From assembly GCA_963809895.1 (NCBI GenBank), contig CAWELD010000003.1:1024001-1088000 (forward strand): DNA of 64,000 bases, written 5' to 3'. Below, piece by piece: positions 26,789 through 46,101 of this stretch. The number at the start of each line of letters is the position of its first letter. Position 1 is the stretch's first letter. A program made the position numbers and the translations under genes. The notes beneath the pieces were generated by a model. That model was not told where the DNA came from and ran no database searches. It saw only the letters and a list, made by a program, of their open reading frames with translations. The DNA is from an uncultured Gemmatimonadales bacterium (GTDB taxonomy: Bacteria; Gemmatimonadota; Gemmatimonadetes; Longimicrobiales; Gaopeijiaceae).

Positions 26789-26870
26789 CGTGCGCGAGTC
26801 CCGGTCTCCGAGGAAGGCGGCCCGGCGATCCGCAGCCGCCTCGTCAATGTACGCGCGGGGGGCGTGAAGG

Positions 26871-28082: not shown

Positions 28083-28083
28083 G

Positions 28084-28992: not shown

Positions 28993-29000
28993 GACCTCTC

Positions 29001-29065: not shown

Positions 29066-29164
29066 CACTGTGGCCTCCGAAACAGGTAGGCTCGTACTTT
29101 GTCTGAGCGGAGCTGAGTGGGACACGGCTCGCACACTCCTGAACAGGCGTCGGAGGCGCAACGG

Positions 29165-29650: not shown

Positions 29651-29655
29651 GGGCC

Positions 29656-29709
29656 GAAAACGCCACGAGCCCGGCAAGGTCTCTCGACCTCACCGGGCTC
29701 GTCGTTTTC
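29656..29709. terminator. Bidirectional terminator-like hairpin beside the att repeat
   Basis: GAAAACG..ACGAGCCCGG / CCGGGCTCGT.CGTTTTC inverted repeat. Confidence 0.65.
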
Positions 29710-29756
29710 CAGAGCGGGCGACCGGGCTCGAACCGGCGACCCTCAGCTTGGGAAGC
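29708..29756. repeat. att site (duplicated 3' part of tRNA-Gly)
   Basis: 49-bp exact match to 46024-46072. Confidence 0.95.
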
Positions 29757-29848
29757 GTCGGAAGCGCGACGGACCGCTGCAGGATTCCGCGCAGTTATGC
29801 CATTTCTGCCCCCGACGCCAGCGGTGGGCGGCGGTCGTCAGCGGTGGG

Positions 29849-29879
29849 CGTGGGCACTGATTCTGTCACTGCGGCCCAC
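29849..29879 (+). repeat. Putative integrase arm-type binding site
   Basis: CGTGGGCACTGATTCTGTCACTGCGGCCCAC, 29/31 identical to 45933-45963. Confidence 0.75.
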
Positions 29880-30035
29880 GTCCGCACCGGCCCCGGGTCG
29901 CCCTCAGCGGTGGGCCGGGCCCTTCAGTTCAGGAATGGCCCCGAGCGACCACCATCTGAACCTCCCTGGAAACGAGAACGGCCGCCCTGAACATCGGGCA
30001 ACCGCTGTCGTTTGGGGATGGCTGGATGGGACGAC

Positions 30036-30239
30036 CTATCGGCCGTTCTGTTTCGCCCGAAGTCCAGGAAGCATGAGGTCGTCGAAGGCGACATCCGACC
30101 AGCCCTCGGAGCCCGTGTCTCCCAAGGCAACAAAACTGAGGCCGCGGATCTGGTCATGGGGAAACGCCGTGAGCGTCGCAGATTGCGGACACTCTTCCGA
30201 TGGGTCGGGAATCGTCAGTTTGCCAATCACCACGTCCAT
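30036..30239 (-). CDS. Small hypothetical protein
   Basis: GAGGAG RBS, immediately downstream of the Ntn gene. Confidence 0.3.
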   Translation of the reverse strand: MDVVIGKLTIPDPSEECPQSATLTAFPHDQIRGLSFVALGDTGSEGWSDVAFDDLMLPGLRAKQNGR

Positions 30240-30255
30240 CGCGCTCCTCGCTAAT

Positions 30256-31080
30256 CTAGGAAGGAAACAAGTGCGGCGTGCCATCGGGCACCTCACCTCG
30301 AATGCGCTTCTCCTGCACGAAACTAAGGCCCTCGGACCTTGTCAGTGTTGCTACGTCGATGGGGCCGCCACAGCCCCGCATTACCACCGAGAGCCGCTGT
30401 GCCGCAATCGTCGTACGGATAAAGAACAGGGCCAGATCCACGCAATCCTCCAAGGGGAGTGCCTGGACGGGCACTTTCATCTGAATAGCGGCGGCCTTGG
30501 CCTGGAAGGCGTCGATGTTCTCCTCGGCTATACCCGACTCCCTCATGAGCTCTACCACGCGATGGTCGTACCCGCGCACGAGCCGGTCGACATACTCACG
30601 CTGCCCTCCCCAGGTGAGTCCGAACTGGTTCGCATCATGCCTTGCGATGGGGTTTGCGGAATGGGGCAGGTTCAATTCGTATACCTCGCCGTACGCCTTC
30701 TTGTCGTCGTACCCAGCGATAATCATGGTCATCGGCTGGCCCACGTACTGCTGGTTTCCCAGCTGCTCGTTCCACCGCTCAACAAAGAAGTGCCCGATTC
30801 GCTCCGAGTATGCCTTGATGGACAAACGCTCGTCGGGTAGATGGGACTGCAGTTCCGGCAGATAGCTATGCGCGGTGCGAAGTCCGATCGCGGCCTGGCC
30901 CCACGTGACGATGCCCACATGCTGGTGGGGCTCGACGCCGAGGCCGAAGAGCTTCACCGCATTGTCGTAGCTGATGTACAGCGGGTGTCCCAGAATCGGC
31001 GAATCGGTTTGCAGGGTGACGCGCGATTCGGCCGCGAGCACGATTCCGCTCGGGGACTTGATGGCGATGCCAAGACTCAA
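30256..31080 (-). CDS. Proteasome-beta-like Ntn-hydrolase family protein
   Basis: TTG start with GGAG RBS; (M)SLGIAIK..GIVLAAESR..VKLF, IIAGYD, GGPIDVATLT. Confidence 0.7.
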   Translation of the reverse strand: MSLGIAIKSPSGIVLAAESRVTLQTDSPILGHPLYISYDNAVKLFGLGVEPHQHVGIVTWGQAAIGLRTAHSYLPELQSHLPDERLSIKAYSERIGHFFVERWNEQLGNQQYVGQPMTMIIAGYDDKKAYGEVYELNLPHSANPIARHDANQFGLTWGGQREYVDRLVRGYDHRVVELMRESGIAEENIDAFQAKAAAIQMKVPVQALPLEDCVDLALFFIRTTIAAQRLSVVMRGCGGPIDVATLTRSEGLSFVQEKRIRGEVPDGTPHLFPS

Positions 31081-31091
31081 TGTCGCCTGCT

Positions 31092-31156
31092 CCGGACCTT
31101 GCCTGGGGGAGCTGGATTCGGCAACAGGATTACGCCGATCGCACCTCGACCGCAAG
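31092..31156 (-). repeat. Conserved 5' leader, copy B
   Basis: Similar to 29001-29065; lies just upstream of the Ntn gene start. Confidence 0.75.
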
Positions 31157-31267
31157 GACACGCGCTCCTTACACGGGACGCGCGCCCCCATACTTGACAA
31201 AGTACCCGCATCAGGTTATTGATGTGATGAGGGCCCCCCCAGACCCCTCCCACTGGGTGGTCATGTC

Positions 31268-32323
31268 ATGGTGTCTCACCTCGTCTTCGGGGCTCTTCTT
31301 ACCGTCGCCCAGCAGCCGGTTCAGGTTGCACCCGCCACCGATTGTCCGGACCCAGGTTGCGGGTATTCGCTCGCCACAGAAGTGGAGCTCGAGCCTACGG
31401 GGCGGTCTATCAGCATCGGTCGCACTAATGATTCGGGAAGGACGTTCGCGGTAATCGGGAGCGCTGTCGACCAAGTCCTCGTGTTCACCCCGGACGGCAC
31501 TCGGACGAGTTCGGTCGCCTACCCTCCGGTGGGCTCGTACGTCAACATCTACTCGCTCGTCCCAGCCGCGGACTCGATGATCGCCTTTGACCGGGCTGGG
31601 CCGAGTCTCTCCGTGATTGATCGGAACCTCCGTGTTGCTCGCACGGAGCGATTCCCGATGCCGGTCTTTGACGCTGTGCGTCTTGGAGACGACGCCTTCC
31701 TCGTGAACGCTGAGATGAACACGCCGGAGCGGGTCGGGCTTCCCCTTCACGTCGTCCGGAATGGAGAGATCGTGCGCTCGTTTGGTTCTGCGCATGGGGT
31801 GTACCGACCTGACTTCTCGTATCTCACGCGGCGCGAAGTGGCCCTCGCATCCTCGGGCGAACTCTGGGCAGCCAGGAAGAGCGAGTATCGCCTTGAGTCA
31901 TGGGGGAACTCGGATGAGGCGCCCGACAAGGTGCTCGCGGTTGACCTCCCGGGCTTCGAGCCCTGGAGCAGCGGCCCCCGGAGCCCTAGCGATGGAAATG
32001 GGCCTCGCGGACTCCTAGAAGACCTATCCATCGATGAGCAGGGCTACCTGCGCGTAATCGTCACCGTTAGAGATGTCGATTGGCGTGATGCCGCATCGCT
32101 CCGCGGCGAGGGAGCCTCTAGCGCCTATCTCCCGACTGACCTGTCCGGCTACTTCGATTCGTACGTGGACATCATCGATCCCGTTAGAGGCGTCCTTGTG
32201 GCCCGGCTCTGGTCTGATGCGTACCTCACCACCTTCCTCGACCCGGAACATGCGATTGCCAACGTCGGACCGAGGGAGTCCCCGCGAACATCCATCGTCA
32301 GGATTCAAGTCAAGCGACCGTGA
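31268..32323 (+). CDS. Secreted beta-propeller protein
   Basis: N-terminal CxxxxC, VLVFTPDG, LHVVRNGEIVRSFG, YVDIIDPVRGVLVA blade-like motifs. Confidence 0.7.
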   Translation: MVSHLVFGALLTVAQQPVQVAPATDCPDPGCGYSLATEVELEPTGRSISIGRTNDSGRTFAVIGSAVDQVLVFTPDGTRTSSVAYPPVGSYVNIYSLVPAADSMIAFDRAGPSLSVIDRNLRVARTERFPMPVFDAVRLGDDAFLVNAEMNTPERVGLPLHVVRNGEIVRSFGSAHGVYRPDFSYLTRREVALASSGELWAARKSEYRLESWGNSDEAPDKVLAVDLPGFEPWSSGPRSPSDGNGPRGLLEDLSIDEQGYLRVIVTVRDVDWRDAASLRGEGASSAYLPTDLSGYFDSYVDIIDPVRGVLVARLWSDAYLTTFLDPEHAIANVGPRESPRTSIVRIQVKRP

Positions 32324-32401
32324 ACTGTATCTTCCTTGGGGGAGGGGGTTCCGAACCAAATCGTTGCTTGCATCGTTCACGTATACACGTAGGAGTCTGA
32401 T

Positions 32402-32908
32402 ATGAGGAAGTTGTTTGGAGTTTCGGCCCTCTGCCTCGGCATCTTCATCGTGGCAGCCGGTTTTACGTTCCATGCTTCGCCCGCGCATGTCGCGACCGCG
32501 GCAGAAGCAGAAGCGCTGTTGAGCGCCCCCATGAACTTCCGGGAGGCCCGCGTCGGTTGCGTAGCCTGCGATATCTGCGGGGATGATGGGCATCTGACAA
32601 TCTCCAACCCAGAGGCCCTGAGAAGCGGACTCGTCCACAACTGCTACGACCAATACAACAACTGTGATTTCTGGCACCCCGCGGACTGCACGGTTCAGGA
32701 GGACGTGCAGGAGGTCGACCTGGCCGCGCTGTGGCCAACGCTCACCGACGGGACCACCGATGAGATTCGAGGGATTCTTCAGAGGATGCCTGAACGCGTA
32801 TACCTCAACGTGGACCGGAGTTCACTTCAGGTACTCGGATGCAGCGGCGCCGTCATTGCGAACCTACCGCTTGCACCCGAGAGCGTCGCGGCGTTAGCTC
32901 AAGACTAG
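32402..32908 (+). CDS. Secreted Cys/His-rich small protein (168 aa)
   Basis: AGGAG RBS; signal peptide; CxxCxxC..H..HNC..C..H..C core; C-terminal LQVLGC.G.VIANLPL. Confidence 0.8.
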   Translation: MRKLFGVSALCLGIFIVAAGFTFHASPAHVATAAEAEALLSAPMNFREARVGCVACDICGDDGHLTISNPEALRSGLVHNCYDQYNNCDFWHPADCTVQEDVQEVDLAALWPTLTDGTTDEIRGILQRMPERVYLNVDRSSLQVLGCSGAVIANLPLAPESVAALAQD

Positions 32909-32945
32909 CCGGCGGTTTGGTTGCCCCTCCCCCAAGATTCTATCG

Positions 32946-34154
32946 ATGCCCACCGAGAGCTACGTCGACTTCCCCCGATCACTCAACGTGTCACGAGCGG
33001 CATCGGTTGCGGCCCTGCTTTTGCTCCTTGCGGCGTGCGGGACGGACGGCACGGTGCCGAGGATGCCCGAGTCGATGGATACGCTCCACCTCTCCAGCGA
33101 GGTCGTCATCGGACGTGAGCCAGAACAGGCCTTTGGCCACATCACCGCTATTGGCACCGCATCAGATGGGACTGCTCTGGTAGCGGACTCCTATTCTGGA
33201 CAGCTACGTGTCTTCAGCCCGGAAGGAGAAGAGCTCGCCCGCTTCGGCAGAACTGGTCAGGGCCCTGGCGAATTTGGCCTGGTCACTGCGATTTCTTCGG
33301 TGGGCGACACGCTGTGGGCGATAAGGGATGTCTCAAACGCCCGGGTCACGATTGCTTCCATGGGAGGAGAGTTTGTGACCTCTTGGTCAGCAGCCGGCGT
33401 AGAATTCTCAGGTACCAAGGGCTTGGTCACTACACCCAGCGGCAACCTGGTCCTCACCTCCTTCGAGTCAGGAGCTATTGTTGCGGAGACAAGGTCTCCT
33501 TCGGGTGCGGAAGTTGGCAAGCCCGTACGATTCCCTATGACTCACTTCGATGCCTGTCCCAAGCAACTCATCGCCGGCCCAGGTACACCGGTCATTCCCC
33601 TCTCGTCGTCTCTCCAGTGGTCCATCGCCCCTCAGGGCGGGATCTATTTCAGCTGTGGAGACGAATTTGAGGTCAGCATTGAGACATCAGCCGGGACGGA
33701 CAAGACTATCAGGAGCGTGACGCCCCCAGTGAGCGTCTCAGCTGGTGAGCGGGACTTCTACCGTGATTGGATCAATAACCGGATGCATGTCCGTAACCCT
33801 CGATGGCGATGGGACGGAAGCAACATCCCAAGCACCAAGCCACCCATCCTTGGCCTCTACGCGACCGATCGAGCTGGTTTGTGGATCGCCCTGCCGAGGC
33901 CTGGGGCTCCGGAGCCCAAACCCCCACGAGCTTCGGAGGTGGATCCCGATCCATTTTGGTTCTCTCCGAAGAGCTTCGAAGTCATCGGGCTTGATGGTCA
34001 CCCGCTCGCAATCGTTGAAGGGGATAGACACATCCAGTTGACCGTCGACCCATCTCCATGGATTGGTGGACTCTGGGCTGTGTCGACGGATCCCATTGGG
34101 ACGCCTCTTCTCGTCCACTATCGGCTTGATCAACCACTCCGGTCACTGCGATGA
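32946..34154 (+). CDS. 6-bladed beta-propeller lipoprotein
   Basis: LAAC lipobox; LRVFSPEG..FGRTGQGPGEF; FEVIGLDGHPL. Confidence 0.8.
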   Translation: MPTESYVDFPRSLNVSRAASVAALLLLLAACGTDGTVPRMPESMDTLHLSSEVVIGREPEQAFGHITAIGTASDGTALVADSYSGQLRVFSPEGEELARFGRTGQGPGEFGLVTAISSVGDTLWAIRDVSNARVTIASMGGEFVTSWSAAGVEFSGTKGLVTTPSGNLVLTSFESGAIVAETRSPSGAEVGKPVRFPMTHFDACPKQLIAGPGTPVIPLSSSLQWSIAPQGGIYFSCGDEFEVSIETSAGTDKTIRSVTPPVSVSAGERDFYRDWINNRMHVRNPRWRWDGSNIPSTKPPILGLYATDRAGLWIALPRPGAPEPKPPRASEVDPDPFWFSPKSFEVIGLDGHPLAIVEGDRHIQLTVDPSPWIGGLWAVSTDPIGTPLLVHYRLDQPLRSLR

Positions 34155-34225
34155 GGCCTCGGCCGGCTGAATGTTGTCTAACTCGCGTCCGACGACCATC
34201 GTCGGGGAAGCAGGCTTGATCCTGG

Positions 34226-34393
34226 ATGGATGACGCGAGAGCAGGTGCTTTCCCGACCCTTGCCGCGGCGGCCAGGACCTTCGAAGTCTGGCGATACATC
34301 TTCGGAACGGAGGACCCTGAATACCCCAACGTGCGTTTCCCGCGCGCTTTGAGCGCGGCCATCAGGACGGTGGTCGAGGAACGTCTGGAGTAA
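34226..34393 (+). pseudogene. Short ORF, possibly a gene fragment (HEPN-like FEVWRYIF)
   Basis: 55 aa; resemblance to a HEPN-type C-terminus by eye only. Confidence 0.2.
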
Positions 34394-34666
34394 GCTCACG
34401 CGCCGAGCGCAAGGAGGCTCGCCATGCGCCGCATCGCACCACGCTGGGCCACGCCGTACCTGCTGCTGCTCATCGCTCCCCCGAGCTCGGCGGCCGCCCA
34501 GGACGCCGTCGTCTCCCGGAACGTGAACCTCCGGCATGACCCCTCAACGAACCAGCCGGCGATCCGGCTGATGCTGCCCGGCGCCGAGCTCTTCGTCCTG
34601 GACGGACAAGCCCGAACCAATGGCTACTACCACGTCCGCGCGATGGACGGGGCCGAGGGCTGGGCC

Positions 34667-36002
34667 GGGCCGGACCAGACTGGCAGATAGGTAACACTTC
34701 AGACCGACCACATGGGTAACGGCCACAGGATACTAGCGTCGCCTCCTCGTTTGTGCACCGATGCGGCGGAGACGGCCGTGCTGCTCGTCGAGAATGGCCA
34801 CGAGGCAGGGGCCGAGGTAGATATTCCAGTCTCCGCAGTCCTGGAAGTCGAGGCCCAGCGTTTCGCCGCGTAGGGTCTCGCTCACAAAGTACTCTTGGCC
34901 CCGCCATCGCATCTGCCCGTGTCGCGTGACCCGGCGGGTTTCAAATCGATCCGGATAGGAAAGCGCTTCCGGCTGTTTGGGCATCGCTGTGTTCGACGGC
35001 GTGTAAAGGCTGGCCGGTGTCTTCAGGTCGAGCGCTTCGTGCGGCCGTTCCTCATTGTAGATTCGTCGGAAGCGGTTGAACGCTCTTTGCTGGAGTTCCC
35101 GTGTCCGAGCGGGCGGCCGGGTCGCCTCAGCCTTCAGCGTCCGATGCATGCGCTCATGGGCGCCGTTGTCTTCCGGATGCCGGGGTCGGGTCCGCTCGAG
35201 CCGGATGCCCAATCGGATCCACCACACCGCGAGTTGAGACAGGCCCGCGATGGCCTGGGTGCTGAAAGGGACGCCGTTGTCCGTCCGGATGACCTCGGGA
35301 AGCCCGAAGGCACGGAAGACGCGCTCGAACCCGGCCCGAGTGCCGGCGGTCGCGGTGCTCGGCAATCCACGGCAGTCGAGCAGGAATCGACTGTGCGCAT
35401 CAACGATGGTGAGCGGGTAGCACAGACGACCGCTGCCCAATCGGAACTCACCCTTGAAGTCCGCCGTCCAGACACGGTTGGGAGCATCGGCCTCCGTCCG
35501 GGCCGGACGCCACACGCTGGGCTTCATCGTACGTCGCCTGCGCGGTTTCGTGAGGCCTTCCCGCTTGAGGATCGAGCCAATGGTGCTGCAGGCCGGCCAA
35601 CGTGCTCGAGGGCGCGCCTGCTCCAGCCATGCCTTCAGCTTTCGAGGCCCCCAGGTCGGATGCTCCTTCCGAAGCGCGACGATTTCATCAACTGTCGCCT
35701 GCGGCGTCGCTTCCCGCTGTCGGTGGGGAGCTCGCGAGCGATCCGCGAGGCCCGCCAACCCTTCCCGCCGGTACCGGTCAAGCCATTTGTACCCGACGCG
35801 TCGACTGACGCCGTACCGGGCACAGACCTCCGTCATCGAATCCCAACCCTCCAGAGCCTCCAACACGAACCGGATCCGTTCGTCCATCGGACAGGTCTCA
35901 CTCCACGGCATCGAGCACCTCGTGGCTGTAGGTGCTCTAGGTTGCGTTGAGTGTTACCTATGTGCTCGGATTATTCTGTTACCCCTGTGCCCGGTCCGTA
36001 CC
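34667..36002 (-). mobile_element. IS481-family insertion sequence
   Basis: Transposase plus imperfect inverted ends with repeated GGTAACA motifs; GCC at both junctions; exact ends uncertain. Confidence 0.85.
34733..35911 (-). CDS. IS481-family DDE transposase
   Basis: MPWSET.PMDER, WTADFKG, IRTDNGVPF, NGAHERMHRTLK, YNEERPHEAL. Confidence 0.95.
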   Translation of the reverse strand: MPWSETCPMDERIRFVLEALEGWDSMTEVCARYGVSRRVGYKWLDRYRREGLAGLADRSRAPHRQREATPQATVDEIVALRKEHPTWGPRKLKAWLEQARPRARWPACSTIGSILKREGLTKPRRRRTMKPSVWRPARTEADAPNRVWTADFKGEFRLGSGRLCYPLTIVDAHSRFLLDCRGLPSTATAGTRAGFERVFRAFGLPEVIRTDNGVPFSTQAIAGLSQLAVWWIRLGIRLERTRPRHPEDNGAHERMHRTLKAEATRPPARTRELQQRAFNRFRRIYNEERPHEALDLKTPASLYTPSNTAMPKQPEALSYPDRFETRRVTRHGQMRWRGQEYFVSETLRGETLGLDFQDCGDWNIYLGPCLVAILDEQHGRLRRIGAQTRRRR

Positions 36003-36385
36003 GCCTACTCTCCGCGGGTCCGCATCCTCCCCCCTCCCCCACCTGGCCCCGAGGCGATCTTCAACAACTGCCCGCTCGAGGGGAACGCGGCCCGGGAGGA
36101 CACCCAGGCCCAGAACCGGCTGAAGAACCGGACGACGGCGCCCCAGGCCAGCGACATCAACCCGGCGATCACCCTCCAGGCCGGCTCCGAAGCCGGCGGC
36201 CTGGAGGTCCGCGCGCCCCTCGGTGGCTGCGCTCGTCGGGCATCTCTTCAAGGAAGGAAGGTGCAGGCGGGGCTCGCGGCGCTGGGTAGGTTACGCCGGA
36301 GCAATTACGCTGACTAGGCAACCGCCTGCGCGAAGGACGTGGGCGCTCCAAACGGCCCGGAAAACCGACGCCACACGCCCTCCGC

Positions 36386-37775
36386 TCACCATCCGTAAGG
36401 GTTCTTCGGTTTGAAGCCGAGTCTGACCCGCTCGTAGTCGGACAGGGCCCCCACGATCTCGAGGGTGACGTGGCTACCGCTCAATTCGCCGTGGTCGAGG
36501 AGAGCCTGGGCCACCGCCATTACGGCGCTCCATTCCCTGCGCAGCCACGACCGCGCCACGCGGATCGCGCCGCCTACGTCGCCGGCGCGGCCCTGCAGCG
36601 CCTGGATGCGGCGGATCGCCGCCACGGTTGAAGGCGGAGTCGAGGAGCTGGAACCCCGCCTCCAGCTCGGCCGCGATCCCCGCCGCGCATACTGTGGCGC
36701 ATGCGTCCGCCGAGGTGTCCTCTGGAGGGAGTCCCCCATGGACGCGGCCACCGTTGATGAGCAGGCGCCCGCCGTCAACGCGCCAGCGAATCTCGGCGCC
36801 GGAGAGCGTCTGGTGCAGCCGGAGCATCGCAACAGCGTGGCCTGCCTCGTGGTAGGCGACCATTCGCGCGCGCTGCCATGTCGAAGCATCGGCCAGGCGC
36901 CACGCGAGGGCCCACGGCACGCCCGCCGGCTCCTGCTCCACGACGGCGGCGATCCTCGAGGGCGCCGCGGCGGCCCGACCTGCGGGCCGAGAGCCACCGC
37001 CCTGGAGCTCCTGGAGGACGTCATCGAGGGTGGCGATGCGGTCCGCGAGCCCACGCTGGACCGCCCGGGCCGCGTCGTACGTGCGCCCACCGCCGAACTG
37101 CTGGCGAACCGTCGAGATGGACACGCCACGACCCTTGGCCACTGCCTTCTCGAACGCCCGGCCGTAGGCCTGTACGATGCTCAGGGTGTGGGCCTGGGCC
37201 TCGTCGCTCATGGGCTCGTACGGGTTGCCTTCGGCCTTCTGGTCCGGGTATCGGACGATGGTCGGCGCGATGCCGCGGCCGCCGAGGTTCTTCGACCAGT
37301 CGAAGTGCACCGTGTAGACGCCGATCGAGCCGACTTCGCCGGAGGGCGTGACCACGAGCTCCGACGCGGCGGAGGCAATCCAGTAGGCCGCGGAGGCCAT
37401 GAGGCTGTCCGCGGTGGCTACCACGCGCTTCTTCTTCGCGGCCTCGGCCACCAGAGAGGCGGCCTCCGTGACCCCGTAGACGCCGCCGCCAGGGGAATCG
37501 ACGATGAGCAGGATGCTCTCGACCGAGGGCGCGACCATCGCTGAGCGCACGGAGGCCATGAAGCTGTCGAGGCCGGTGCCGCCGAAGAAGCGGGTCATCA
37601 TCGATTCGCGGCGATCGATCAGGCCGAACAGCGGGATCACGGCTACATCACCGGCCGCGGAGATCCTCTGTCGCTGGCGGGCGGCGCGGATCGCGTGGCC
37701 CAGGCGGTCGGTGGCGAGCGCGGCGGGCTGACCCTCAAGACAGGCGAGCGCGGCGCGGAGCGAGACGTCTTCCAC
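36386..37775 (-). CDS. S49 (phage prohead/SppA-like) serine protease fused to an M41-like HEAGH metallopeptidase; frameshift near 36615
   Basis: DSPGG, ASAAYWIAS, GSIGV, GLADRIAT, then in frame AYHEAGHAV..AAGIAAE; tail W.AV.AVAQALL..GELSG in a shifted frame. Confidence 0.8.
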
Positions 37776-37777
37776 GG

Positions 37778-38476
37778 TCAGCCGCCGGTCGGGCCGTCTA
37801 GGGGCCACTTCCGCGTCTCGTCTTTGTCGTCCGAGACGGACGGCGCGACCGGCTTCGTTCCGGCCGGGATCTCGGGGTCGGCGATTGGCGGGATCGAGCC
37901 CTTGATCGCCGCCAGGCGAGCGTCGAGGTCCTTCCCGGGCTCCAGCTTCACGCGCTCGAGCTCCCGATAGGCGGCGCCGATCGCCTCGAGACGGGCGAGG
38001 ATGGAGGACCTGTTCGACACGGACCGCGCGGGCCGACCGGTGAGCCAATGCTTCGGCGCCACCTCGACCGACATGGGCTGGATCCGGCGAGTCTGCTCGT
38101 GGAGGTCCTGGAGCTCGTGCTGCAGGCGACGGATCGCGTCATCGGCCGTGCCCTTGAGTTCCTTCTCGAGCCTCGCGATACGGTGCTCGATGGAGACGCT
38201 GACGTTCCACGTCGCGCGCTCCGCGGCGGCGAGCTCATCGAGGGCGGCGCGGTGGATGCGGCCCGTCTCGGCGGCCTTCTCGCGGGCGGTGGCCTCCCGC
38301 TCTCGGAGCTTGGGAAGCTCGGCGTCTCGCTCTTTGCGCAAGGCCTCGATCTGCCTGACGAGCTGGACGCGGCGCTCCAGGCGCTGGGCCCGGGCCTGGG
38401 CCATCGCCTCCTTGTACATCGGGGTCTCGCGGAGGAAGGCCGCGACGGCGTCGGGGTGGAGTTCCGGATCCGGCAT
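37778..38476 (-). CDS. Coiled-coil hypothetical protein (232 aa)
   Basis: E/R/L/A-rich heptad pattern; GAGGG RBS. Confidence 0.7.
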   Translation of the reverse strand: MPDPELHPDAVAAFLRETPMYKEAMAQARAQRLERRVQLVRQIEALRKERDAELPKLREREATAREKAAETGRIHRAALDELAAAERATWNVSVSIEHRIARLEKELKGTADDAIRRLQHELQDLHEQTRRIQPMSVEVAPKHWLTGRPARSVSNRSSILARLEAIGAAYRELERVKLEPGKDLDARLAAIKGSIPPIADPEIPAGTKPVAPSVSDDKDETRKWPLDGPTGG

Positions 38477-38569
38477 TGTCGGGCCCTCAAGGCTGCAGGT
38501 GTTCGAGGTGGACAGTCCAACGGTAGCACCGGGTGGCCACCACGACCCCGGACAAATTCGCCGGAATTT

Positions 38570-38872
38570 TCATCGGCGTTGCCAGGCCGCTTTCCGGGCG
38601 CGGCGGAGTGCGCGGTCCAGCGTCTCTCCGTTGAGGCCAAGCCGCAGAGCCGCGGACTCCCGGATCCGCTCCGCGGTGCCTCCCTCGGTGGCCTCCAGCG
38701 CCTCGACGGCACATGCGAAGGCGAGCAGCTCGAAGAAGCCCCGCACCGCCGGTACGTGGTGCCAGCACTCCACGGGGATCCCGAGGCGACCGCAGGCGTC
38801 CACGAGCGCTACGAGGTGCTCGGGATGTAGCGCGGCCTCGATGGCCTCTCGGTCGCCAGGGTCTCGGGGCAC
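38570..38872 (-). CDS. Small protein with C-terminal HTH-like motif
   Basis: ESAALRLGLNGETLDRALRR. Confidence 0.5.
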   Translation of the reverse strand: MPRDPGDREAIEAALHPEHLVALVDACGRLGIPVECWHHVPAVRGFFELLAFACAVEALEATEGGTAERIRESAALRLGLNGETLDRALRRARKAAWQRR

Positions 38873-38882
38873 GGGAAAGCGT

Positions 38883-39338
38883 CTACCGCTCGCCCAGGGC
38901 GCGGAGCTCGGCGCGGGCGGCTTCCACGACATCGCGGATCAACTCCCGGGCCCGCGACTGCGGGATGTCCAGCTCCTCGGCCACGGACGGGGCCAGCCGG
39001 CGCGGCGCATCCTTGAGGACCTGGTTCACGCGCTCCAGCGGCTCGCGGACGAGTCGCTCCATGTCGTCGAGGGCGACGAGTTGGCCCTGCTCGCGGGCCA
39101 CCTCGAGCTCACGTTTCGCGGCCCTGGCTTCGACCTCACGAACTCGAGCCCGCTGGAGGGCCGACGTGTCGTTGCCGTGCTCCAATAGGAAGCGGAGGAG
39201 CGGCTGGACCCGGTACGTCGGGCTGCGATCGTCGGTGCGAGCCTCCTGGAGGCCCTGCGACTCCCAGTTGCGCAGCGTCCGCTCGGTCATGTCGAGCGCA
39301 ATTGCCACTTCGGCACGGGTGATGGTCAGTGCGGCCAT
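38883..39338 (-). CDS. Nu1-like terminase small subunit
   Basis: N-terminal wHTH (TRAEVA..MTERTLRNWESQG), coiled coil RAR..EARAAKREL..EQGQLV, then LKDAPRRLAP. Confidence 0.72.
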   Translation of the reverse strand: MAALTITRAEVAIALDMTERTLRNWESQGLQEARTDDRSPTYRVQPLLRFLLEHGNDTSALQRARVREVEARAAKRELEVAREQGQLVALDDMERLVREPLERVNQVLKDAPRRLAPSVAEELDIPQSRARELIRDVVEAARAELRALGER

Positions 39339-39387
39339 CTGGCCCTCACGGAAGAAAGGAAGGAGGTATTTTCGTGCTCTCTTTGGC

Positions 39388-39439
39388 GCGAAAAGTCGCT
39401 CGCGCGGCACCCATCCAACTCAGGTCGGGGGACGGACCC
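39388..39439 (-). other. Putative lambda-like cos site (cosQ/cosN-like)
   Basis: GGGTCC..20 nt..GGGTGCCGCGCGAGCGACTTTTCGC upstream of the TerS-like gene. Confidence 0.5.
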
Positions 39440-39492
39440 GCGCTCACTCACCGGTCCTCCTCGAGGAGCTGGTCCGGCGCGCCTGGTCATCG

Positions 39493-39855
39493 TCACTTGA
39501 GCTCTCTCCGCCAGGAGCCCAGGTCCACCTCACCGCGTCGGCGGCGCGTGGTGACGGGCTTCACCTCGCCTGCCTCGGAGCGCTGGAAGGCCCGGATGGC
39601 GGCGCGCGGGATCTTCCACTCCCTGCCCTGCTGTCGGTAGGCGCCCGGGAGCAGGTCGCGGCGGCAGTAGTCCCTCACCGTCGAGGGTGAACGCCCGAGG
39701 ACGTCGCCCGCCTCTTCGACGGTCAGGTCGGCCAGCGAGTCGCCCGTGGGGGTCGGTGTGCTGTCGGGGAGGCGCTCGAGGATGACCCGAGCCGGGACGG
39801 AGGCCTCCACCTCGGCCAGCTGCTCGAGCCAACGTCGGAAGTCGGAGTAGGTCAT
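39493..39855 (-). CDS. Excisionase-like HTH protein
   Basis: LTVEEAGDVLGRSPSTVRDYC..LPGAY..GREWKIP. Confidence 0.8.
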   Translation of the reverse strand: MTYSDFRRWLEQLAEVEASVPARVILERLPDSTPTPTGDSLADLTVEEAGDVLGRSPSTVRDYCRRDLLPGAYRQQGREWKIPRAAIRAFQRSEAGEVKPVTTRRRRGEVDLGSWRRELK

Positions 39856-39870
39856 GGCCACCTCCGCCCA

Positions 39871-40040
39871 CCGTGCCCAAGCCCGGCACGTCGGATGGAG
39901 CGTCGAGTGGACCTCGGGAGTGTGCCCAATGCCCCACCCCCCTTCAGGGGGTGTGTTGGGGCACGGTGGGCACACCCCCTCTCCCGGTGTGCCCTGGGCA
40001 CGGTTTGGGCACGGTTGGGCACGGTCCTCATCGGGCACCT
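39871..40040. repeat. Iteron cluster, putative replication origin
   Basis: Several TGGGCACGGT/GGGCAC direct copies and GTGCCC inverted copies around a CACCCCC-cttca-GGGGGTG palindrome, at the 3' end of the helicase gene. Confidence 0.7.
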
Positions 40041-41350
40041 CCGGCGAGGCTGATCCGAGAGGCCTGCCCTCGCTTCTCGGGGGTCTGGATGACCACCTCT
40101 CCCCGACTGTGCAGGAGCTCGAGGGCGGCCACGATGTCGGGGTTGTGACCCTTGATTCCGTCCCGGAGCGATCGCTTCGACGAGCCCGGATGCAGGGCCA
40201 AGTACTCCAGGACGGCGGGCGCCATCTTCTCGGCGCCGGCCATGCGTTCCACGAGCTCGGGCCGGTGGTCGCTCACCCGCAACCTGAGCCACCCACCAGA
40301 GCGGAAGCTGTTGTGCGGTCCGGCTGGATCCTCGTCCTCGACTGTGAAGGCGAACGGATCCGGGGATACCTCGTCCCGGAGTTCCACCCTCACCGTGACG
40401 GGGGACGTCTCGTCCTTCCGACCGAGCACCGCCCCCATGTCATACCAGGCGCCGAACGCGGAGGAGTTGCGGATCAGGTCGGTGAGCCGCTGGCCTCCTC
40501 CTTGGCCCGGGTCCTTCCGGGCGTGGTGCGTGAGCTGGAGCGCGATGCCCTTCGCCTTGGCGCGGATCCCCGAGAACGCGTTGAGCTGGGGGGTCACCAC
40601 GTCGGAGTCGTCGCTGTCGCCGGTGGCCACGTACGACCAGTTGTCGACCGCCAGGAAGTCGAGCTCCAACTCGGCAGCGTAGTCTCCGAGCTCGTCCACC
40701 GTGCGGTCGCTGAAGCGGAGCGGGGGCCGGAACCAGAGGTGAAGCCATCCGTCGAGCTCCTGGGGGTCTATCCCCCTGCCCCGGCAGATGCGCTCGTAAC
40801 GGCGGCGGACCCGGTGGTCCCGATCCTCCATCAGGACCGCCCCGACGCGGCGGCGCTCGGGCACCTCGAACCGGCCCAGGAAGCGGGTGCCCGACGCGAG
40901 TGCCACCAGCTTCTCCAGGAGAAGGAGGGTCTTGTACGTCTTCGGGTAGCCTGCCTGCAGGATGTTGGCGTCCACGGGGTCCGGGCTCTCGATCAGGAAG
41001 GCCTCTTCGGGCTCCTCCACCGCCAGGAGCTCGGCCACGCCGATGGGGGGCGGGAGCGTTCGTGGTTCGGGCTCCTCACTCAGGCCCTCGAGCGCCCAGG
41101 ACACCGCGGACGACGCCGCACCGTCCGAGAGCCGCTGCAGCAGGAGCTCCTCCGCCGCCGCGCGAAGTGACATCCATCCGCGTGGCGAGGCCGGCCGGAA
41201 CCGCTCGGCGATCTGCCGGACGGCCTGGTAGGCGGAGATCTGACTGTCGACCCCGGGCAGGAACTCCTCGAGGGCAGCCCGGGCCTCTTCGGGCGTCGTG
41301 AGGGTGCCATTGCGCTCGAACTCTCGAGCCGACGCCGACGTCATGCCCAC
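40028..41350 (-). CDS. RepA/AAA_25-type replication helicase
   Basis: Walker A variant AGYPKTYKT, MED, LAVDN, LTHHARK, RNSSAF; C-terminal wHTH-like region. Confidence 0.8.
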   Translation of the reverse strand: MGMTSASAREFERNGTLTTPEEARAALEEFLPGVDSQISAYQAVRQIAERFRPASPRGWMSLRAAAEELLLQRLSDGAASSAVSWALEGLSEEPEPRTLPPPIGVAELLAVEEPEEAFLIESPDPVDANILQAGYPKTYKTLLLLEKLVALASGTRFLGRFEVPERRRVGAVLMEDRDHRVRRRYERICRGRGIDPQELDGWLHLWFRPPLRFSDRTVDELGDYAAELELDFLAVDNWSYVATGDSDDSDVVTPQLNAFSGIRAKAKGIALQLTHHARKDPGQGGGQRLTDLIRNSSAFGAWYDMGAVLGRKDETSPVTVRVELRDEVSPDPFAFTVEDEDPAGPHNSFRSGGWLRLRVSDHRPELVERMAGAEKMAPAVLEYLALHPGSSKRSLRDGIKGHNPDIVAALELLHSRGEVVIQTPEKRGQASRISLAGGAR

Positions 41351-41494
41351 GCCCCCATACTGTTTCCTCCACCAGGAATCACAACGCCTGGGAGGCTTCT
41401 TTCTATCTCACTGGCGGACAGCGGCTTGAGGGAGCTCGCGAATAGCGCCCGCCTGGCCACTGTAGACAGGAATGTGGACACGGCCCGGATTCCC

Positions 41495-41728
41495 TTATCC
41501 GGCGCGATCATCCGGGCCTTTCCCCATCGCGCCGAGGACCTTGGCCAGGTTGGACACGCGGCGGCGGACCACGCGCGCCTCGGCGGCTGCGAAGCGCCCA
41601 GCCTCGACGGCATAAGGCTCAAGGCCAGCGGTCACGGCCGCGTCCAACTGGTCGACGAGCGCGTCTGCCAGCTTCACGGCCTGGCGAAGATGATCCCGGG
41701 CGGCGGCCGTCATCTCATCCCTGGCCAT
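41495..41728 (-). CDS. Small hypothetical protein
   Basis: Overlaps the end of the AlpA gene in the operon. Confidence 0.5.
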   Translation of the reverse strand: MARDEMTAAARDHLRQAVKLADALVDQLDAAVTAGLEPYAVEAGRFAAAEARVVRRRVSNLAKVLGAMGKGPDDRAG

Positions 41729-41921
41729 CGGTCTCACCCGCGACAGGCCTGGAGGTGATCCAATCCTGGATCTCGCTGGAGAGCCAACCCACGACCCCAC
41801 CGCCGAGGTCGCGGCGCCTGGGAAAGCGCCCTTCCCGCTCGCGGCCGTAGATGGTGTTTCTGCCGAGGCCGGTGACCTCGGAGACTTCGTTGATCCGGAG
41901 GATTCGGTCCTGGTCCGCCAT
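41715..41921 (-). CDS. AlpA-family phage regulator
   Basis: ILRINEVSEVTGLGRNTIY..GRFP..LG..VGWLSSEIQDWI; AGGAGG RBS. Confidence 0.92.
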   Translation of the reverse strand: MADQDRILRINEVSEVTGLGRNTIYGREREGRFPRRRDLGGGVVGWLSSEIQDWITSRPVAGETDGQG

Positions 41922-42188
41922 CGCTCGCTGCCTCCTTTCGGGAGTCGCGGATGGCGGCACCTGGACAGGAAACCAAGACAGTCCAAGGACCGCCACCCGT
42001 GCTTCTGGGTGGTTCAGTCGCCTTGGGGCTGTCTCGGTGTGAGGTTGGCCGCAAGTCCAGCTATGTAAGGGGCCGACCAACAGTGGGCCGGGCACCGTGA
42101 TCATACTGCATGTAGGGGGGTTGTCCCGTCAAGTCCCGTAGATCACGGAGGCGTACGGCGGAGTCCGACGCGACCACGTTCTTTGTGC

Positions 42189-42768
42189 TCAGAACTGGTC
42201 CGATATGAATCCAATCTTGGCGCTCCCACCCCCCAGCGCACCTTCGAGAGTTGGACGCCCAACCCAATACCGTTCGATGCTCGACACCCGTCGGATGAGC
42301 AGGTCAGCGGCGCGATGAGCTGCATCGCCGTCTACCGTGCCCTGGTCGACCAATGCCCGATCCCCATCGTCCTTCAGCCAAGAGAAGCTCCACCGTTCGG
42401 GGTCCCCCTCGGATACCTCGACCACGAACAGCGCGGGAGCTTGATCGCCGGCAGGAAAGATGAGGATCCGGGCTCGTAGGGTGGGGCCGGCATCCTTAAG
42501 CGGGAGACACGTCTTCCGTGCCACGATGGCCCATCGCTTCCCCCTGATCTCGAAATGCAGAGCCCTGTACTCTGGACTCTGCTCCTCCTTCGGCTGCGAC
42601 ACTCCGTCCATTTGCATCCGCAGCGCATCCTGCATGGAACTGCCACACATAGCCGATGAAGGCATCGGCGAAGCGTTCGAAGACGGGGAGGAGCCGTGCT
42701 TGGCGCTCTCGGAGGGGTCGGATGCGGTCGGCGAGATCCTGCACCGTCATGGGCACGAAGCTGGCCAT
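42189..42768 (-). CDS. Hypothetical accessory protein, probably frameshifted near 42640
   Basis: AAGGAG RBS and ATG at 42768; an overlapping second frame continues to 42189. Confidence 0.45.
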
Positions 42769-42790
42769 CGGTGGTCTCCTTGCTCCTGGG

Positions 42791-42817
42791 GGTGGCCCTG
42801 GGGGAGCCGGTCGCAAG
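42791..42817 (-). repeat. 27-bp leader repeat, copy 1
   Basis: GGTGGCCCTGGGGGAGCCGGTCGCAAG, identical to 43140-43166. Confidence 0.9.
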
Positions 42818-42900
42818 ATACCACGGAGACGCGGCGAGCAGCTACCTGCTACACGCCTGTCAGGCGATTGGGGACCTCGCCGAGTCGATCCCGGGGGCGC

Positions 42901-43122
42901 TCAGGGGGTGAGGGGCCCGAACCTGAAGCAGAGGCCCGCCTCCGTTTCCGTGATCCCACCGATCTGCGCAATGACGTGTTCGGGCAGACGTGCGGGATCG
43001 AGGATCCGGTACCAAGCGCCCTCGCGCTGCAACACGCCGTCGCTGATCAGACGTTCGAAGTCGATCGGCGTACGAAGGAGCTTGATCCGCTCTTCGACCT
43101 CTTCCTTGGTGAGGCGTGCCAT
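42901..43122 (-). CDS. Small hypothetical protein (73 aa)
   Basis: GGAGGG RBS; MARLTKEEVEERIKLLRTPIDFERLISDGVL. Confidence 0.65.
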   Translation of the reverse strand: MARLTKEEVEERIKLLRTPIDFERLISDGVLQREGAWYRILDPARLPEHVIAQIGGITETEAGLCFRFGPLTP

Positions 43123-43139
43123 CGATCCCTCCGTGCTCA

Positions 43140-43166
43140 GGTGGCCCTGGGGGAGCCGGTCGCAAG
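43140..43166 (-). repeat. 27-bp leader repeat, copy 2
   Basis: Identical to 42791-42817. Confidence 0.9.
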
Positions 43167-43189
43167 GTAGGAACAGCAGATGATAGACG

Positions 43190-43765
43190 CTATTGGCCCA
43201 AGTACTTCGACGGCGGGGTGCGTTCGCCCGCGATACGCGCCATTGCCTCCAACGCCTCCGCGATCCGATGTGATGGAGGGCGCGGCTGCCTGGTGTGCTC
43301 CCACGACTCCCACTCAAGAGTCGATACAGTGAAGTGGCTGGCCGGATGGAAGGCCGCAAACGGGGACCGCGCTCTACTCTCGTACTCGACACTGACCCTC
43401 ACAGGTCGGTCTTTCAGCAGTTTCGCCACCGCGTCAACCCATCCCCAGCGGACGGCCCGTTCCTCTCCCGGCGCCAGCATCGGAACCCCCGTAATCAGGG
43501 GTCCACTCTTCATGGGCCCGTCCTGCTCCCTGCCGACACGCTGTGGAAGCTCTCGGTCCAGGTGAAAGCGAACACCATAGGCTGGCCCGAGTCCCACGTT
43601 CCTGATGACGATGAGGAAGTCATCCAGCGAGTCCGGATCCAAGCGGAGGAATACGAGCACAAGCGGGTCGGTTTGTGCGCGCATCGTGAAGTAGCTTGCG
43701 AGGGCCGCAAACAGGCCAACCGCAACAAGCGCCGCCGTTGCGATCAGCATCCCGACCTCCGTCAC
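43190..43765 (-). CDS. Membrane-anchored hypothetical protein
   Basis: N-terminal TM, IRNVGLGPAYGVRF motif. Confidence 0.65.
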   Translation of the reverse strand: MTEVGMLIATAALVAVGLFAALASYFTMRAQTDPLVLVFLRLDPDSLDDFLIVIRNVGLGPAYGVRFHLDRELPQRVGREQDGPMKSGPLITGVPMLAPGEERAVRWGWVDAVAKLLKDRPVRVSVEYESRARSPFAAFHPASHFTVSTLEWESWEHTRQPRPPSHRIAEALEAMARIAGERTPPSKYLGQ

Positions 43766-43986
43766 CCCTCCAACTCCTCCGCCAGCTCGACGAGCTCCGC
43801 GGCCCGGGCCCGGGCGAGCTTCGCGATGGCCGCCTCCCAGCCCGGGGGTGGAGATCGGTACCCGGTGCTGTCAGGGTCGAGACGAGCCTTGGCGATGGAG
43901 GACGACTCTCGAGCCATGCTCGACGCCACGTCGTCCAGAGTCACCCGGAGGCCGGTGATCCGGTCCGTCGCTTCCTTGAAGTCCAT
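43762..43986 (-). CDS. Small HTH-like regulator (candidate repressor)
   Basis: TLDDVASSM..SSSIAKAR; AAGGA RBS; divergent from radC-int. Confidence 0.6.
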   Translation of the reverse strand: MDFKEATDRITGLRVTLDDVASSMARESSSIAKARLDPDSTGYRSPPPGWEAAIAKLARARAAELVELAEELEG

Positions 43987-44003
43987 GGCTGTCCATCCTT
44001 TTA

Positions 44004-44057
44004 TTGACACGGACGGGGAGTGTCCATATCATATTGGACAGCGGGGCATAAAAGCAA
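44004..44057. promoter_or_regulatory. Overlapping divergent sigma70 promoters with a palindromic operator
   Basis: + strand TTGACA-17-TATCAT (44004-44032); - strand TTGCTT-18-TATGAT; TGTCCA-N8-TGGACA at 44021-44040. Confidence 0.7.
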
Positions 44058-44170
44058 GGCGCCAGGGCCACCCGGAAAGTGAACACCTGACGCCTCACAA
44101 ACACGGCTCTCGCCGCCCCTTACGATCGCCCTGCGAGGGGGGTGAGGGCAAGGATCAGGAGATCGGATCC

Positions 44171-44629
44171 ATGCAGAAGGCACTCGAGTTGTGGAGGACG
44201 TCGCTCATCCGCGAGCCAGGGCCCACCGTCCCGATCACGGGATCCGTCACCGGCCCGGCCCACGTGGGGCTGCTCATGGCGCACCTCTACGGCGACGCCG
44301 CCCAGGAGCACCTGGTGGTCTTCGCGCTGAACGCTCGCCATCATGTCGTGGGGATCCACCCGGTCACGACGGGGATCGCCGATGCCTCCCTGGCCCACGC
44401 CCGTGAGGTGTTCCGACCGGCGATCCTCGCCAATGCGACGGCCATCATCGTCGCCCATAACCACCCGACCGGCGATCTCACGCTGAGCCTGGAGGACAAG
44501 CAACTCGCCGCGCGCCTCGAGGTGGCGGGCCGACACCTGGGGATCAACGTCCTGGACTTCATCGTCACCGACCACCGCGGCCGCTGGCACTCGATTCACG
44601 GGAAGCACGCGAAGGGGGAGGTAGCCTGA
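44171..44629 (+). CDS. RadC-like JAB-domain protein
   Basis: QEH..L, HAREVFRPA, AHNHPTGD..S.ED, LDFIV. Confidence 0.88.
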   Translation: MQKALELWRTSLIREPGPTVPITGSVTGPAHVGLLMAHLYGDAAQEHLVVFALNARHHVVGIHPVTTGIADASLAHAREVFRPAILANATAIIVAHNHPTGDLTLSLEDKQLAARLEVAGRHLGINVLDFIVTDHRGRWHSIHGKHAKGEVA

Positions 44630-44630
44630 C

Positions 44631-45908
44631 ATGCCCAAGCGCACCACCACGCGCCTCTACACGCGCCAGCAGGGCGGCGAGAATCGCTTCTACGGCGATT
44701 TCCGGGCCTACGCCGACGTAGGGGGCGGCCGGGAGGCTCTGATCCCGGAGGGGCAGCGCCAGGCGACCACGGATCCGGATATCGCGGCCAAGCTCTACGC
44801 CGATCGGCTGAAGGAGCTGGACGCCAAGCGCCGGAACCGTCACCTCCACGGGGTCCTGAAGGAGACCGACCTCGGACCCTACGCCGAGTATCACCTGCAG
44901 CAGAAGGCCCGGGACCGGGACGCCACGGAGCGGTGGCTCAAGATGGAGGAGCGCCACCTGCGGGACGCCGTCGCCTTCTTCGGGACCAGCACCGGACTCG
45001 CAGCGATCAGCCCGGAGGAGTGCACCCGGTGGGTCGAGGAGCTCCGCCACCAGGACAACGGCCGCGGGGGGACCCTGTCGGAGACGAGCATCCGGAAGCG
45101 GCTCAACACCCTCTCGAACCTCTTCCGCCGCGCGGTGAGCGAAGGGTACGTCCACCGGAACCCCGTGGCGGACATGTACTCGAAGCCCACGGAGGAGCGC
45201 CGGGAGGCGGACTACCTCGAGCCGGAGGAGGCCGCGCTGCTCCTCGAGTCGGCGCGGACGTACCGGGCGCCCGTGGACGATGGCGCGTTCCCGTACATGT
45301 ATCCGCTGCTGGCCACCTTCCTCCTCACCGGCGGCCGGAAGTCGGAGGTCCTGGGCCTCGAGGTGGACGACGTGAGCCTCCGCCTGGGCAAGGTCTACAT
45401 CCGGCCGAACGACTGGCGCCGGCTCAAGACGCGGGGCAGCAAGCGGACCGTCCCACTCTGGCCGCAGCTCGAGGAGATCCTCCGGGCCTACCTGGTGGAG
45501 CGGGAACGCTCGGGCGGGCTCGGCCGGCTCCTCTTCCCTTCGGCCCGGGGTGAGGGCGAGAGCCTCATCCGGGACGTGCGGAAGGCCCTGGACCACATTG
45601 CGGTCCGCGCGGGCTTCCAGAAGGGCGCCGTCCGCCTCCACCAGCTCCGGCACACGTACACGGCGGCCCGGCTCCAGACGTGCGACCGGGGTCGGCCCGT
45701 GGCCCTTTACACGGTCGCCCGCGAGCTCGGGCACTCCGGCACCGCCATGATCGAGGACCGCTACGGCCACCTCCACGACCGCGTGGAAGCCGGCGGCACG
45801 GAGGTAGTGGAGTTCCGGGTGGAGGCCTGGAGGGAGCGTCTCGGCGAGCGACTCACCGCCCTCGAGCAGCGAGCCAACGCCGGCGACGTCACCGACGCGG
45901 AGGGCTGA
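44631..45908 (+). CDS. Tyrosine recombinase (integrase)
   Basis: TGGRKSE, LKT, HQLRHT, LGH..MIEDRYGH catalytic residues; adjacent to the att/tRNA. Confidence 0.95.
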   Translation: MPKRTTTRLYTRQQGGENRFYGDFRAYADVGGGREALIPEGQRQATTDPDIAAKLYADRLKELDAKRRNRHLHGVLKETDLGPYAEYHLQQKARDRDATERWLKMEERHLRDAVAFFGTSTGLAAISPEECTRWVEELRHQDNGRGGTLSETSIRKRLNTLSNLFRRAVSEGYVHRNPVADMYSKPTEERREADYLEPEEAALLLESARTYRAPVDDGAFPYMYPLLATFLLTGGRKSEVLGLEVDDVSLRLGKVYIRPNDWRRLKTRGSKRTVPLWPQLEEILRAYLVERERSGGLGRLLFPSARGEGESLIRDVRKALDHIAVRAGFQKGAVRLHQLRHTYTAARLQTCDRGRPVALYTVARELGHSGTAMIEDRYGHLHDRVEAGGTEVVEFRVEAWRERLGERLTALEQRANAGDVTDAEG

Positions 45909-45925
45909 GAAGCCCCCCTTTTTTT
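45899..45925 (+). terminator. Intrinsic terminator after the integrase
   Basis: GGGCT-GAGA-AGCCC stem followed by T7. Confidence 0.65.
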
Positions 45926-45932
45926 CGCCGTT

Positions 45933-45963
45933 CGTGGGCACTGATTCTGACACTGCCGCCCAC
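45933..45963 (+). repeat. Putative integrase arm-type binding site
   Basis: 29/31 identical to 29849-29879. Confidence 0.75.
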
Positions 45964-46028
45964 CGTACCCTCGAACTGAACGAGCCCGGCAAGGCCGCAA
46001 AGCCTTACCGGGTCTCGTTTTACTCCAG

Positions 46029-46101
46029 AGCGGGCGACCGGGCTCGAACCGGCGACCCTCAGCTTGGGAAGCTGATGCTCTACCAACTGAGCTACGCCCG
46101 C
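46029..46101 (-). tRNA. tRNA-Gly (CCC)
   Basis: GCGGGCGTAGCTCAGTTGGTAGAGCATCAGCTTCCCAAGCTGAGGGTCGCCGGTTCGAGCCCGGTCGCCCGCT cloverleaf. Confidence 0.97.

Follow-up and report, generated by a model that had tools for sequence, protein, structure and literature searches.

A capsid-less island with a cos-like site, a Nu1-type small terminase and a head protease in Gemmatimonadota: a probable PICI-like satellite of lambda-like phages

The 64,000-nucleotide stretch of Gemmatimonadota DNA considered here (the window, meaning the stretch at its full length) contains, between exact direct repeats, a 16.3-kb island that is probably a satellite similar to phage-inducible chromosomal islands (PICIs), packaged into particles of lambda-like cos phages. 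It has a cos-like site, a terminase small subunit (TerS) and a head protease, while genes for capsid, portal, motor and tail are missing, so that it likely travels in another phage's particles. Its boundaries and gene content are observed directly, as are a cos motif common to the lambda-like prophages of the order and a late gene block common to other islands. Below, G-numbers stand for genomes, L-numbers for extracted loci or viral contigs, and X1 and X2 for sequencing runs, X1 being from soil.

The 49-bp repeat copies (29708-29756 and 46024-46072), and the tRNA-Gly(CCC) gene (46028-46101, minus strand) within which the right-hand one lies, confirm what an earlier note, written from the sequence alone, had described as some 16.3 kb between perfect repeats at a tRNA-Gly. 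The predicted excised circle measures 16,316 bp, or about 15.0 kb after subtraction of an IS481 insertion, and shorter repeats inside each end likely represent integrase arm sites. The gene list of that note, with a radC-int arm and an opposing arm running from a regulator to a protease, was borne out by gene calls and by Pfam and PHROG scans (Table 1). Two of its labels, 'regulator' and the helix-turn-helix (HTH) after TerS, belong to genes that are present but have no Pfam match, so these names rest on position and relatives. As the note had also stated, none of the 26 element open reading frames (ORFs) scanned against PHROGs and Pfam matches a large terminase (TerL), portal, capsid, tail, lysis or conjugation gene; a single 'portal' row (phrog_21, 2e-4) was discarded as it falls on the protease domain.

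The TerS profile matches structures of lambda Nu1, and the protein is nearer to full Nu1 (E 1e-5) than to RppC (0.84). At 151 aa it is of Rpp-like size; since the TerS of the G074 phage is equally short, length cannot separate a replacement TerS from an Rpp-like partner. Searching 301 genomes of the order for TerS brought up ten matches outside its own genome. Six are lambda-like prophage loci with a Nu1 TerS, a GpA TerL and, as far as the contig extends, portal, S49 protease and capsid; four were false, being IS21-type HTHs and a host gene (L096 was judged by score and context). A seventh lambda-like prophage, in G032, emerged from the integrase survey, giving seven loci in five genomes of the order. 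Upstream of TerS, five of the six TerS-found loci and the IMG/VR contig L014 present GGGTCC followed 24-28 bases on by GGT, a spacing that reproduces the geometry of lambda cosQ-cosN. In a profile built from six phage sites the island's site ranks first in the 5.3-Mb genome, at 27.2 bits versus 22.8 for the next, and held-out phages score 34.5 (G032) and 28.0 (L191). The IMG/VR phage L191, whose gene order is TerS-GpA-portal-S49-capsid, agrees with the island's site over the 14 bases that open the cosN part; it is one of two IMG/VR matches to a short exact cos pattern, and the same phage provides one of 55 metagenome matches. A strict version of the pattern was absent from the viral contigs scanned. 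L191-type phages are a helper class rather than a proven helper and, judged by sequence, the lambda-like prophages of the order would likewise supply one.

A cos-pattern match in L190 was rejected, lying inside a gene, and the genome's second-best cos score (22.8 bits; window 30982-31036, plus strand) falls within an island cargo gene, probably by chance. At tRNA-Lys the same genome carries another island (G000:C3:2221668-2233984; about 12.3 kb). It encodes an integrase, cargo, xis-like and TerS-like proteins and a 498-aa TerL (phrog_2, 3e-42), with neither portal nor capsid. A TerS-like gene at a contig end (G000:C10:1226825-1227418) possibly belongs to a third element, and an 88-bp stretch beside it is common to window 29945-30032 and the tRNA-Lys island. 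Islands of G213:C87 (L115:6005-7974) and G008:C222 (L263:2543-4390) combine a TerS-like gene with a TerL split into ATPase and nuclease genes; head genes were not seen in them.

The interval between TerS and the protease is occupied by orf100 and a gene for a coiled-coil protein. Clustering at 50% yields 206 relatives of the latter protein, most of them 200-250 aa long and alignable end to end; it has no Pfam, PHROG or PDB family match. Its profile matched none of 89 phage loci; among the 301 order genomes and 401 genomes of the phylum (overlapping sets) it gave 11 matches at E<=1e-5, eight of them in small islands. The G093 match, a host gene, and a pair of short fragments in G366 were set aside, and eight weaker ones (E 1e-4 to 1e-3) were left out of the island counts. 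TerS occurs in five of the eight islands, a cos-like motif in four, an HExxH gene in three and a portal or GpA TerL in none. Island contents vary: orf100, coiled coil, HK97 capsid, HExxH gene and P27 TerS between tRNA-Leu repeats (G291); Prim-Pol, D5, P27 TerS, HExxH and coiled coil (G008); helicase, cos-like site, Nu1 TerS (phrog_57, 6e-11), coiled coil, xis, int and tRNA-Leu, with no TerL (G325); coiled coil, cos-like site, ParB, Mom and Nu1 TerS (G404); coiled coil, cos-like site (26.9 bits) and HExxH (G567); orf100, capsid and HExxH, the coiled coil missing (G066); and TerS, orf100, tape measure and TerL (G544). A leave-one-out profile from three other islands recovers the window's orf100 at 3.6e-11. 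Elsewhere, a word-indexed protein search returned only the window's own coiled coil, a metagenome pattern scan none, and the ESM Atlas no usable match.

This interval bears on whether the island might be the deletion remnant of a small lambda-like prophage shorn of TerL, portal, capsid and tail. Such an origin would suit the phage order of cos, TerS and S49, and the complete small prophage of G032 has the same integrase family (34%) and an xis-HTH gene. We consider it very unlikely, because the gap between TerS and S49 is filled by orf100 and the coiled coil, which recur in islands but were met in none of 89 phage loci, because AlpA, helicase and ori form a satellite-type replicon, and because in four of five same-genus genomes the tRNA-Gly site has other genes, with neither an integrase nor any element gene for about 1 kb (in the fifth, no tRNA was called there). 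The earlier note's proposal of a satellite of a lambda-like cos phage is well supported by the cos motif, the Nu1-type TerS and an S49 domain nearest to lambda-like prophages of the same family or order, and is further backed by module genes common to small islands, not phages.

The coiled-coil protein is modelled as one 91-residue helix with a small helical lobe (predicted local distance difference test, pLDDT, 90.7) and is predicted to form an antiparallel coiled-coil dimer (score 0.62 versus 0.00 for the best control; pLDDT 87), prediction runs agreeing in 97% of contacts; of 30 solved pairs, 20 reached the score mark, as did one of 23 single chains. Fold searches yielded no significant match, and Sid, Psu and TcaP were not listed, by which kinship is not excluded; in the comparison for a Sid-type scaffold the best Z, 7.3, fell on generic helical bundles. 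Its shape, size and neighbours, and an island genome about one third of lambda's, suggest that the dimer could shrink helper proheads as an outer scaffold, an idea that we hold to be possible rather than probable.

The S49 domain matches head maturation proteases (phrog_53, 6.6e-68), its catalytic Ser and Lys align with those of lambda gpC, and its closest relative (53%) belongs to a lambda-like prophage of the order. In this gene, which the earlier note described as an S49-M41 protease, the M41 match is weak (0.017) and there is a frameshift near 36615. Leave-one-out profiles recover both window pieces of the HExxH part (4e-8 and 1e-5), and the model of the G567 HExxH protein resembles the FtsH protease domain (E 1.8e-4; template modelling score, TM, 0.57). 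The gpC alignment, these profiles and the FtsH-like model lead us to regard the window protease as a lambda-type S49 domain in which an island-resident HExxH domain replaces the scaffold tail. The 80 IMG/VR loci that hold S49 relatives all have the look of normal phage head modules; BLAST finds a portal in 73 of them and a capsid in 65, and three atypical ones were inspected individually. An S49 tree gave no firm placement of the window branch, a word-indexed search with the S49 C-terminal part found only the window's own sequence, and four phylum matches to the HExxH part were rejected as unrelated genes. In the small lambda-like prophage G032:C207 (L231), which has a satellite-family integrase, the S49 protease is fused to an HK97-type capsid (864 aa).

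The integrase family is present in 50 of the 301 order genomes, and all eight named records with relatives are Gemmatimonadota, three of them sharing the neighbourhood of tRNA-Gly, TPR and gltX; pattern scans returned nothing for the integrase in viral contigs or for the helicase in genome contigs. The radC-int and alpA-helicase arms diverge, and between radC-int and the 74-aa gene lies a sigma70-like promoter match (11/12) whose -10 is covered by a 20-bp palindrome. Homologues of the 74-aa gene reside in islands of G544, G066, G271, G008 and G291. AlpA scores 63.4 bits with PF05930, versus a cut-off of 21. Helicase homologues (45-49%) are found in tRNA islands of G123 and G213, part of the protein matches phrog_2597 weakly beside AAA_25, and related islands carry Prim-Pol, D5 or DnaB modules in its place. 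The hexamer cluster 3' of the helicase, a candidate origin (ori), is the sole genome site with at least 5 copies, and a separate 7-copy cluster occupies the matching place in the G213 relative. Two further tRNA islands of the integrase family, G544:C1 at about 19200-35600 (L203, L249) and G141:C112 (L176), contain TerS, TerL and a tape-measure gene; capsid and portal were not found in them.

This replicon also counts against the island being an integrative defence element, unpackaged, whose TerS, cos and two protease domains serve only to block phage. Defence islands often carry RadC and small ORFs of unknown function, and a protease without a scaffold tail would fit that role; with the replicon kept and a well-formed cos at a phage-like distance from TerS, we find such an explanation very improbable.

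The copy in the window looks partly decayed, through the IS481 insertion and the frameshift. A relative in soil run X1, at about 95% identity (about 88-97% in pieces), lacks both: one contig joins 34663 to 36003 with IS481 absent, and another, over 36190-37061, has 38 differences and 11 extra letters at 36615 that place S49 and the whole of HExxH in one frame. Further X1 contigs take in pieces of S49, of the coiled coil and of the int-tRNA end. Exact 151-base pieces in run X2 may stem from the source site and were not counted as support. The island might accordingly be a satellite by origin that is now dead here, stuck since these lesions and no longer mobilised, which would also agree with an own assembly devoid of a helper and with the failure to see excision joints in contigs of two runs. 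That outcome strikes us as improbable, given that the att repeats are perfect, that int, AlpA, helicase, TerS, coiled coil and S49 domain are open (GC content at third codon positions 0.87-0.93), that both lesions affect cargo or the last domain, and that the 11-base loss, located within a short tandem repeat, might stem from faulty assembly.

Several observations, besides the integrase of the G032 prophage, weigh against a packaged satellite. The anchor motif was first noticed in the window, which makes the cos profile test partly circular; the profile gives lambda itself only 7.9 bits and L101 15.3, and 54 of the 55 metagenome pattern matches lie away from any terminase. Candidates for the helper with a matching cos that the earlier note had proposed to look for exist among lambda-like prophages of the order; the island's own assembly (95% complete) has no GpA TerL and no lambda or HK97 portal or capsid. 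The note's proposed check on excision gave nothing, attP/attB joints not being found in contigs from either run, and the X1 contigs are short, at depth 2-6, none spanning the gene order. As that note had remarked, no primase domain is recognisable by Pfam or PHROGs in the 26 ORFs. S49 stands beside the coiled coil in none of the eight other islands, and no S49-HExxH fusion was found among 502 candidates or 301 phylum genomes. The note had held that a prophage remnant, or a gene set that does not recur, would undo its interpretation; this interpretation has largely come through, since the block genes recur, although the exact gene order was found complete in no second genome.

We infer every step of the mechanism from excision to packaging. 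On helper infection the divergent promoter would be freed from control, and Int, together with AlpA and the HTH excisionase, would release the 16.3-kb circle. The helicase would load at the iteron cluster and borrow host primase. Acting by itself, or jointly with helper TerS in Rpp style, the Nu1-type TerS would bring the helper's GpA-type TerL to the island cos, and DNA would enter helper proheads, which the coiled-coil dimer may, as said, shrink. That the scaffold-less S49-HExxH protease might mature these proheads, or spoil them, seems to us rather doubtful.

In the parts of the papers drawn on here, int, AlpA, rep, ori, cos and TerS followed by captured late genes constitute the general PICI plan (PMC10085698, PMC10111431), and a PICI with a head-protease gene (C:CLP_protease) has already been published (PMC10111431). 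The earlier claim of a layout unlike those known was thus overstated: with Rpp/TerS-cos hijacking and captured late genes the island would work as PICIs do, making it a variant rather than a new class, and its novelty lies in the phylum, in the orf100/coiled-coil/HExxH block and in the S49-HExxH fusion. Four PICI features are present: an integrase with att repeats, an AlpA/MerR/Stl-type regulator, a candidate ori 3' of rep, and a small terminase with a helper-type cos. Of capsid-morphogenesis genes, which type B PICIs lack, Pfam and PHROGs show no capsid homologue, the coiled coil being only a candidate. The own capsid, portal and TerL that define capsid-forming PICIs were not found, nor, between cos and att, the TerL, portal, capsid and tail of a lambda-like prophage.

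Like Gram-negative PICIs (GN-PICIs) such as EcCICFT073 with Rpp, as the cited portions describe them, the island has int, AlpA and rep then ori in about 15 kb, no tail or lysis genes, its own cosQ-cosN matching lambda-like helpers and a TerS-like protein of about 150 aa (PMC6092414, PMC9026076). It differs in that int diverges from alpA, whereas int, alpA and pri of GN-PICIs are unidirectional in the text cited (PMC10111431), and in having a helicase without primase, a TerS closer to Nu1 than to RppC, no capsid gene, and the S49-HExxH protease with the coiled coil. The four-zone GN-PICI plan of the same source, with integration, variable, replication and late zones, is followed in the same order (PMC10111431), but in another phylum, with an S49/gpC-type protease fused to HExxH, and not embedded in a helper. 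The coiled coil resembles Sid of P4 and TcaP of PICI-like elements (PLEs), at least as far as the cited text presents them, in being a long helical satellite protein of similar size, predicted as an extended dimer (PMC10945586); but no sequence or fold match was found, Psu, delta, epsilon and the alpha primase have no Pfam or PHROG match in the 26 ORFs, and the recombinase is of tyrosine, not serine, type. Marine VEIMEs, integrative mobile elements encapsidated in virions, are similarly capsid-less, of at most 16.8 kb, with tyrosine integrase, AlpA, helicase, TerS and sometimes serine-protease modules (PMC9618062); they are defined by virion concatemers, the island by its sequence, and the sections cited describe neither cos nor S49 for them (PMC9618062).

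A full-text literature search found no phage satellite described for Gemmatimonadota, and the literature located on satellite head proteases and on HExxH/M41 in satellites leaves the block undescribed, although supplementary PICI gene lists may hold S49-bearing elements. The island extends cos-hijacking satellites to this phylum, and the coiled-coil and FtsH-like HExxH families mark satellites that capsid-based detection misses, satellite-specific families that are of more lasting value than the single island. If the coiled coil resizes capsids, it would be a further independent solution to the central satellite trick, testable in E. coli without culturing the host. Only tentatively, and with more doubt than confidence, might it be seen as founder of a large family, confined to satellites, of scaffolds that set capsid size and have no sequence kinship with Sid, TcaP and CpmB, heading a plug-in late block in which Gemmatimonadota satellites swap a helper-fitting head gene (HK97 capsid, lambda-type protease or none), the two-headed S49-HExxH protease taking over or sabotaging lambda-like prohead maturation.

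Table 1. Features of the island, in window coordinates.
Feature	Position	Strand	Basis or remark
Distal att copy (tRNA 3' part, 49-bp exact repeat)	29708..29756	.	repeat search
31-bp repeat, 94%, inside each end	29849..29879 and 45933-45963	.	candidate integrase arm sites
Cargo, 274 aa	30256..31080	-	no Pfam match; phrog_5990 (unknown) 8.8e-9; proteasome/Ntn-like by eye only
Cargo: 2 beta-propeller-type proteins and a 168-aa protein	31268..34154	+	numerous host paralogues, lower GC
SH3-domain cargo gene, interrupted by IS481	34424..36190	+	PF08239 2.7e-6
IS481 transposase	34733-35911	-	IS481 domains
S49 head-maturation protease fused to FtsH-like HExxH domain	36386..37775	-	frameshift near 36615
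Coiled-coil protein, 232 aa	37778..38476	-	family of 206 clusters; predicted antiparallel dimer
orf100, small conserved satellite gene	38570..38872	-	no family match; leave-one-out profile
Nu1-type TerS, 151 aa	38883..39338	-	phrog_57 1.2e-12
cosQ-cosN-like site, ~100 bp ahead of TerS	39390..39442	-	cos profile
Excisionase-like HTH_17 protein	39493..39855	-	2.9e-12; homologues in many related islands
ori candidate: hexamer, 9 copies, both orientations, 190 bp	39851..40040	.	unique cluster in genome
AAA_25 (RepA-like) helicase, 438 aa	40028..41344	-	3e-18
AlpA (41715-41921) and 77-aa ORF	41495..41921	-	PF05930 1.8e-17
Variable zone: 4 small ORFs	42189..43750	-	30-bp repeat before two (42791-42820, 43140-43169)
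74-aa regulator-like gene	43762..44040	-	position and homologues beside related integrases
sigma70-like promoter, divergent	44004-44032	+	overlapped by 20-bp palindrome 44021-44040
RadC-like JAB protein	44171..44629	+	PF04002 7.6e-28
Tyrosine integrase	44631..45908	+	phrog_1 1e-43
Proximal att copy and tRNA-Gly(CCC)	46024..46101	-	repeat search, tRNA/Rfam call

GC content is host-like in the core (36-46 kb) and lower in the cargo (30-34 kb). An Rfam scan of the element returned the tRNA only, the 30-bp repeats of the variable zone being unmatched. Elsewhere in the window, at about 8080-8175, the tRNA-Gly att and its flank recur in degenerate form (85% over 96 bases) beside a tRNA-Arg (7312-7385), and the 21 kb from there to the island may represent an earlier insertion of an island at this site. 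Like the 274-aa cargo gene here, one in the G291 island (L266:4199-4993) looks Ntn/proteasome-like by eye and has no Pfam match.

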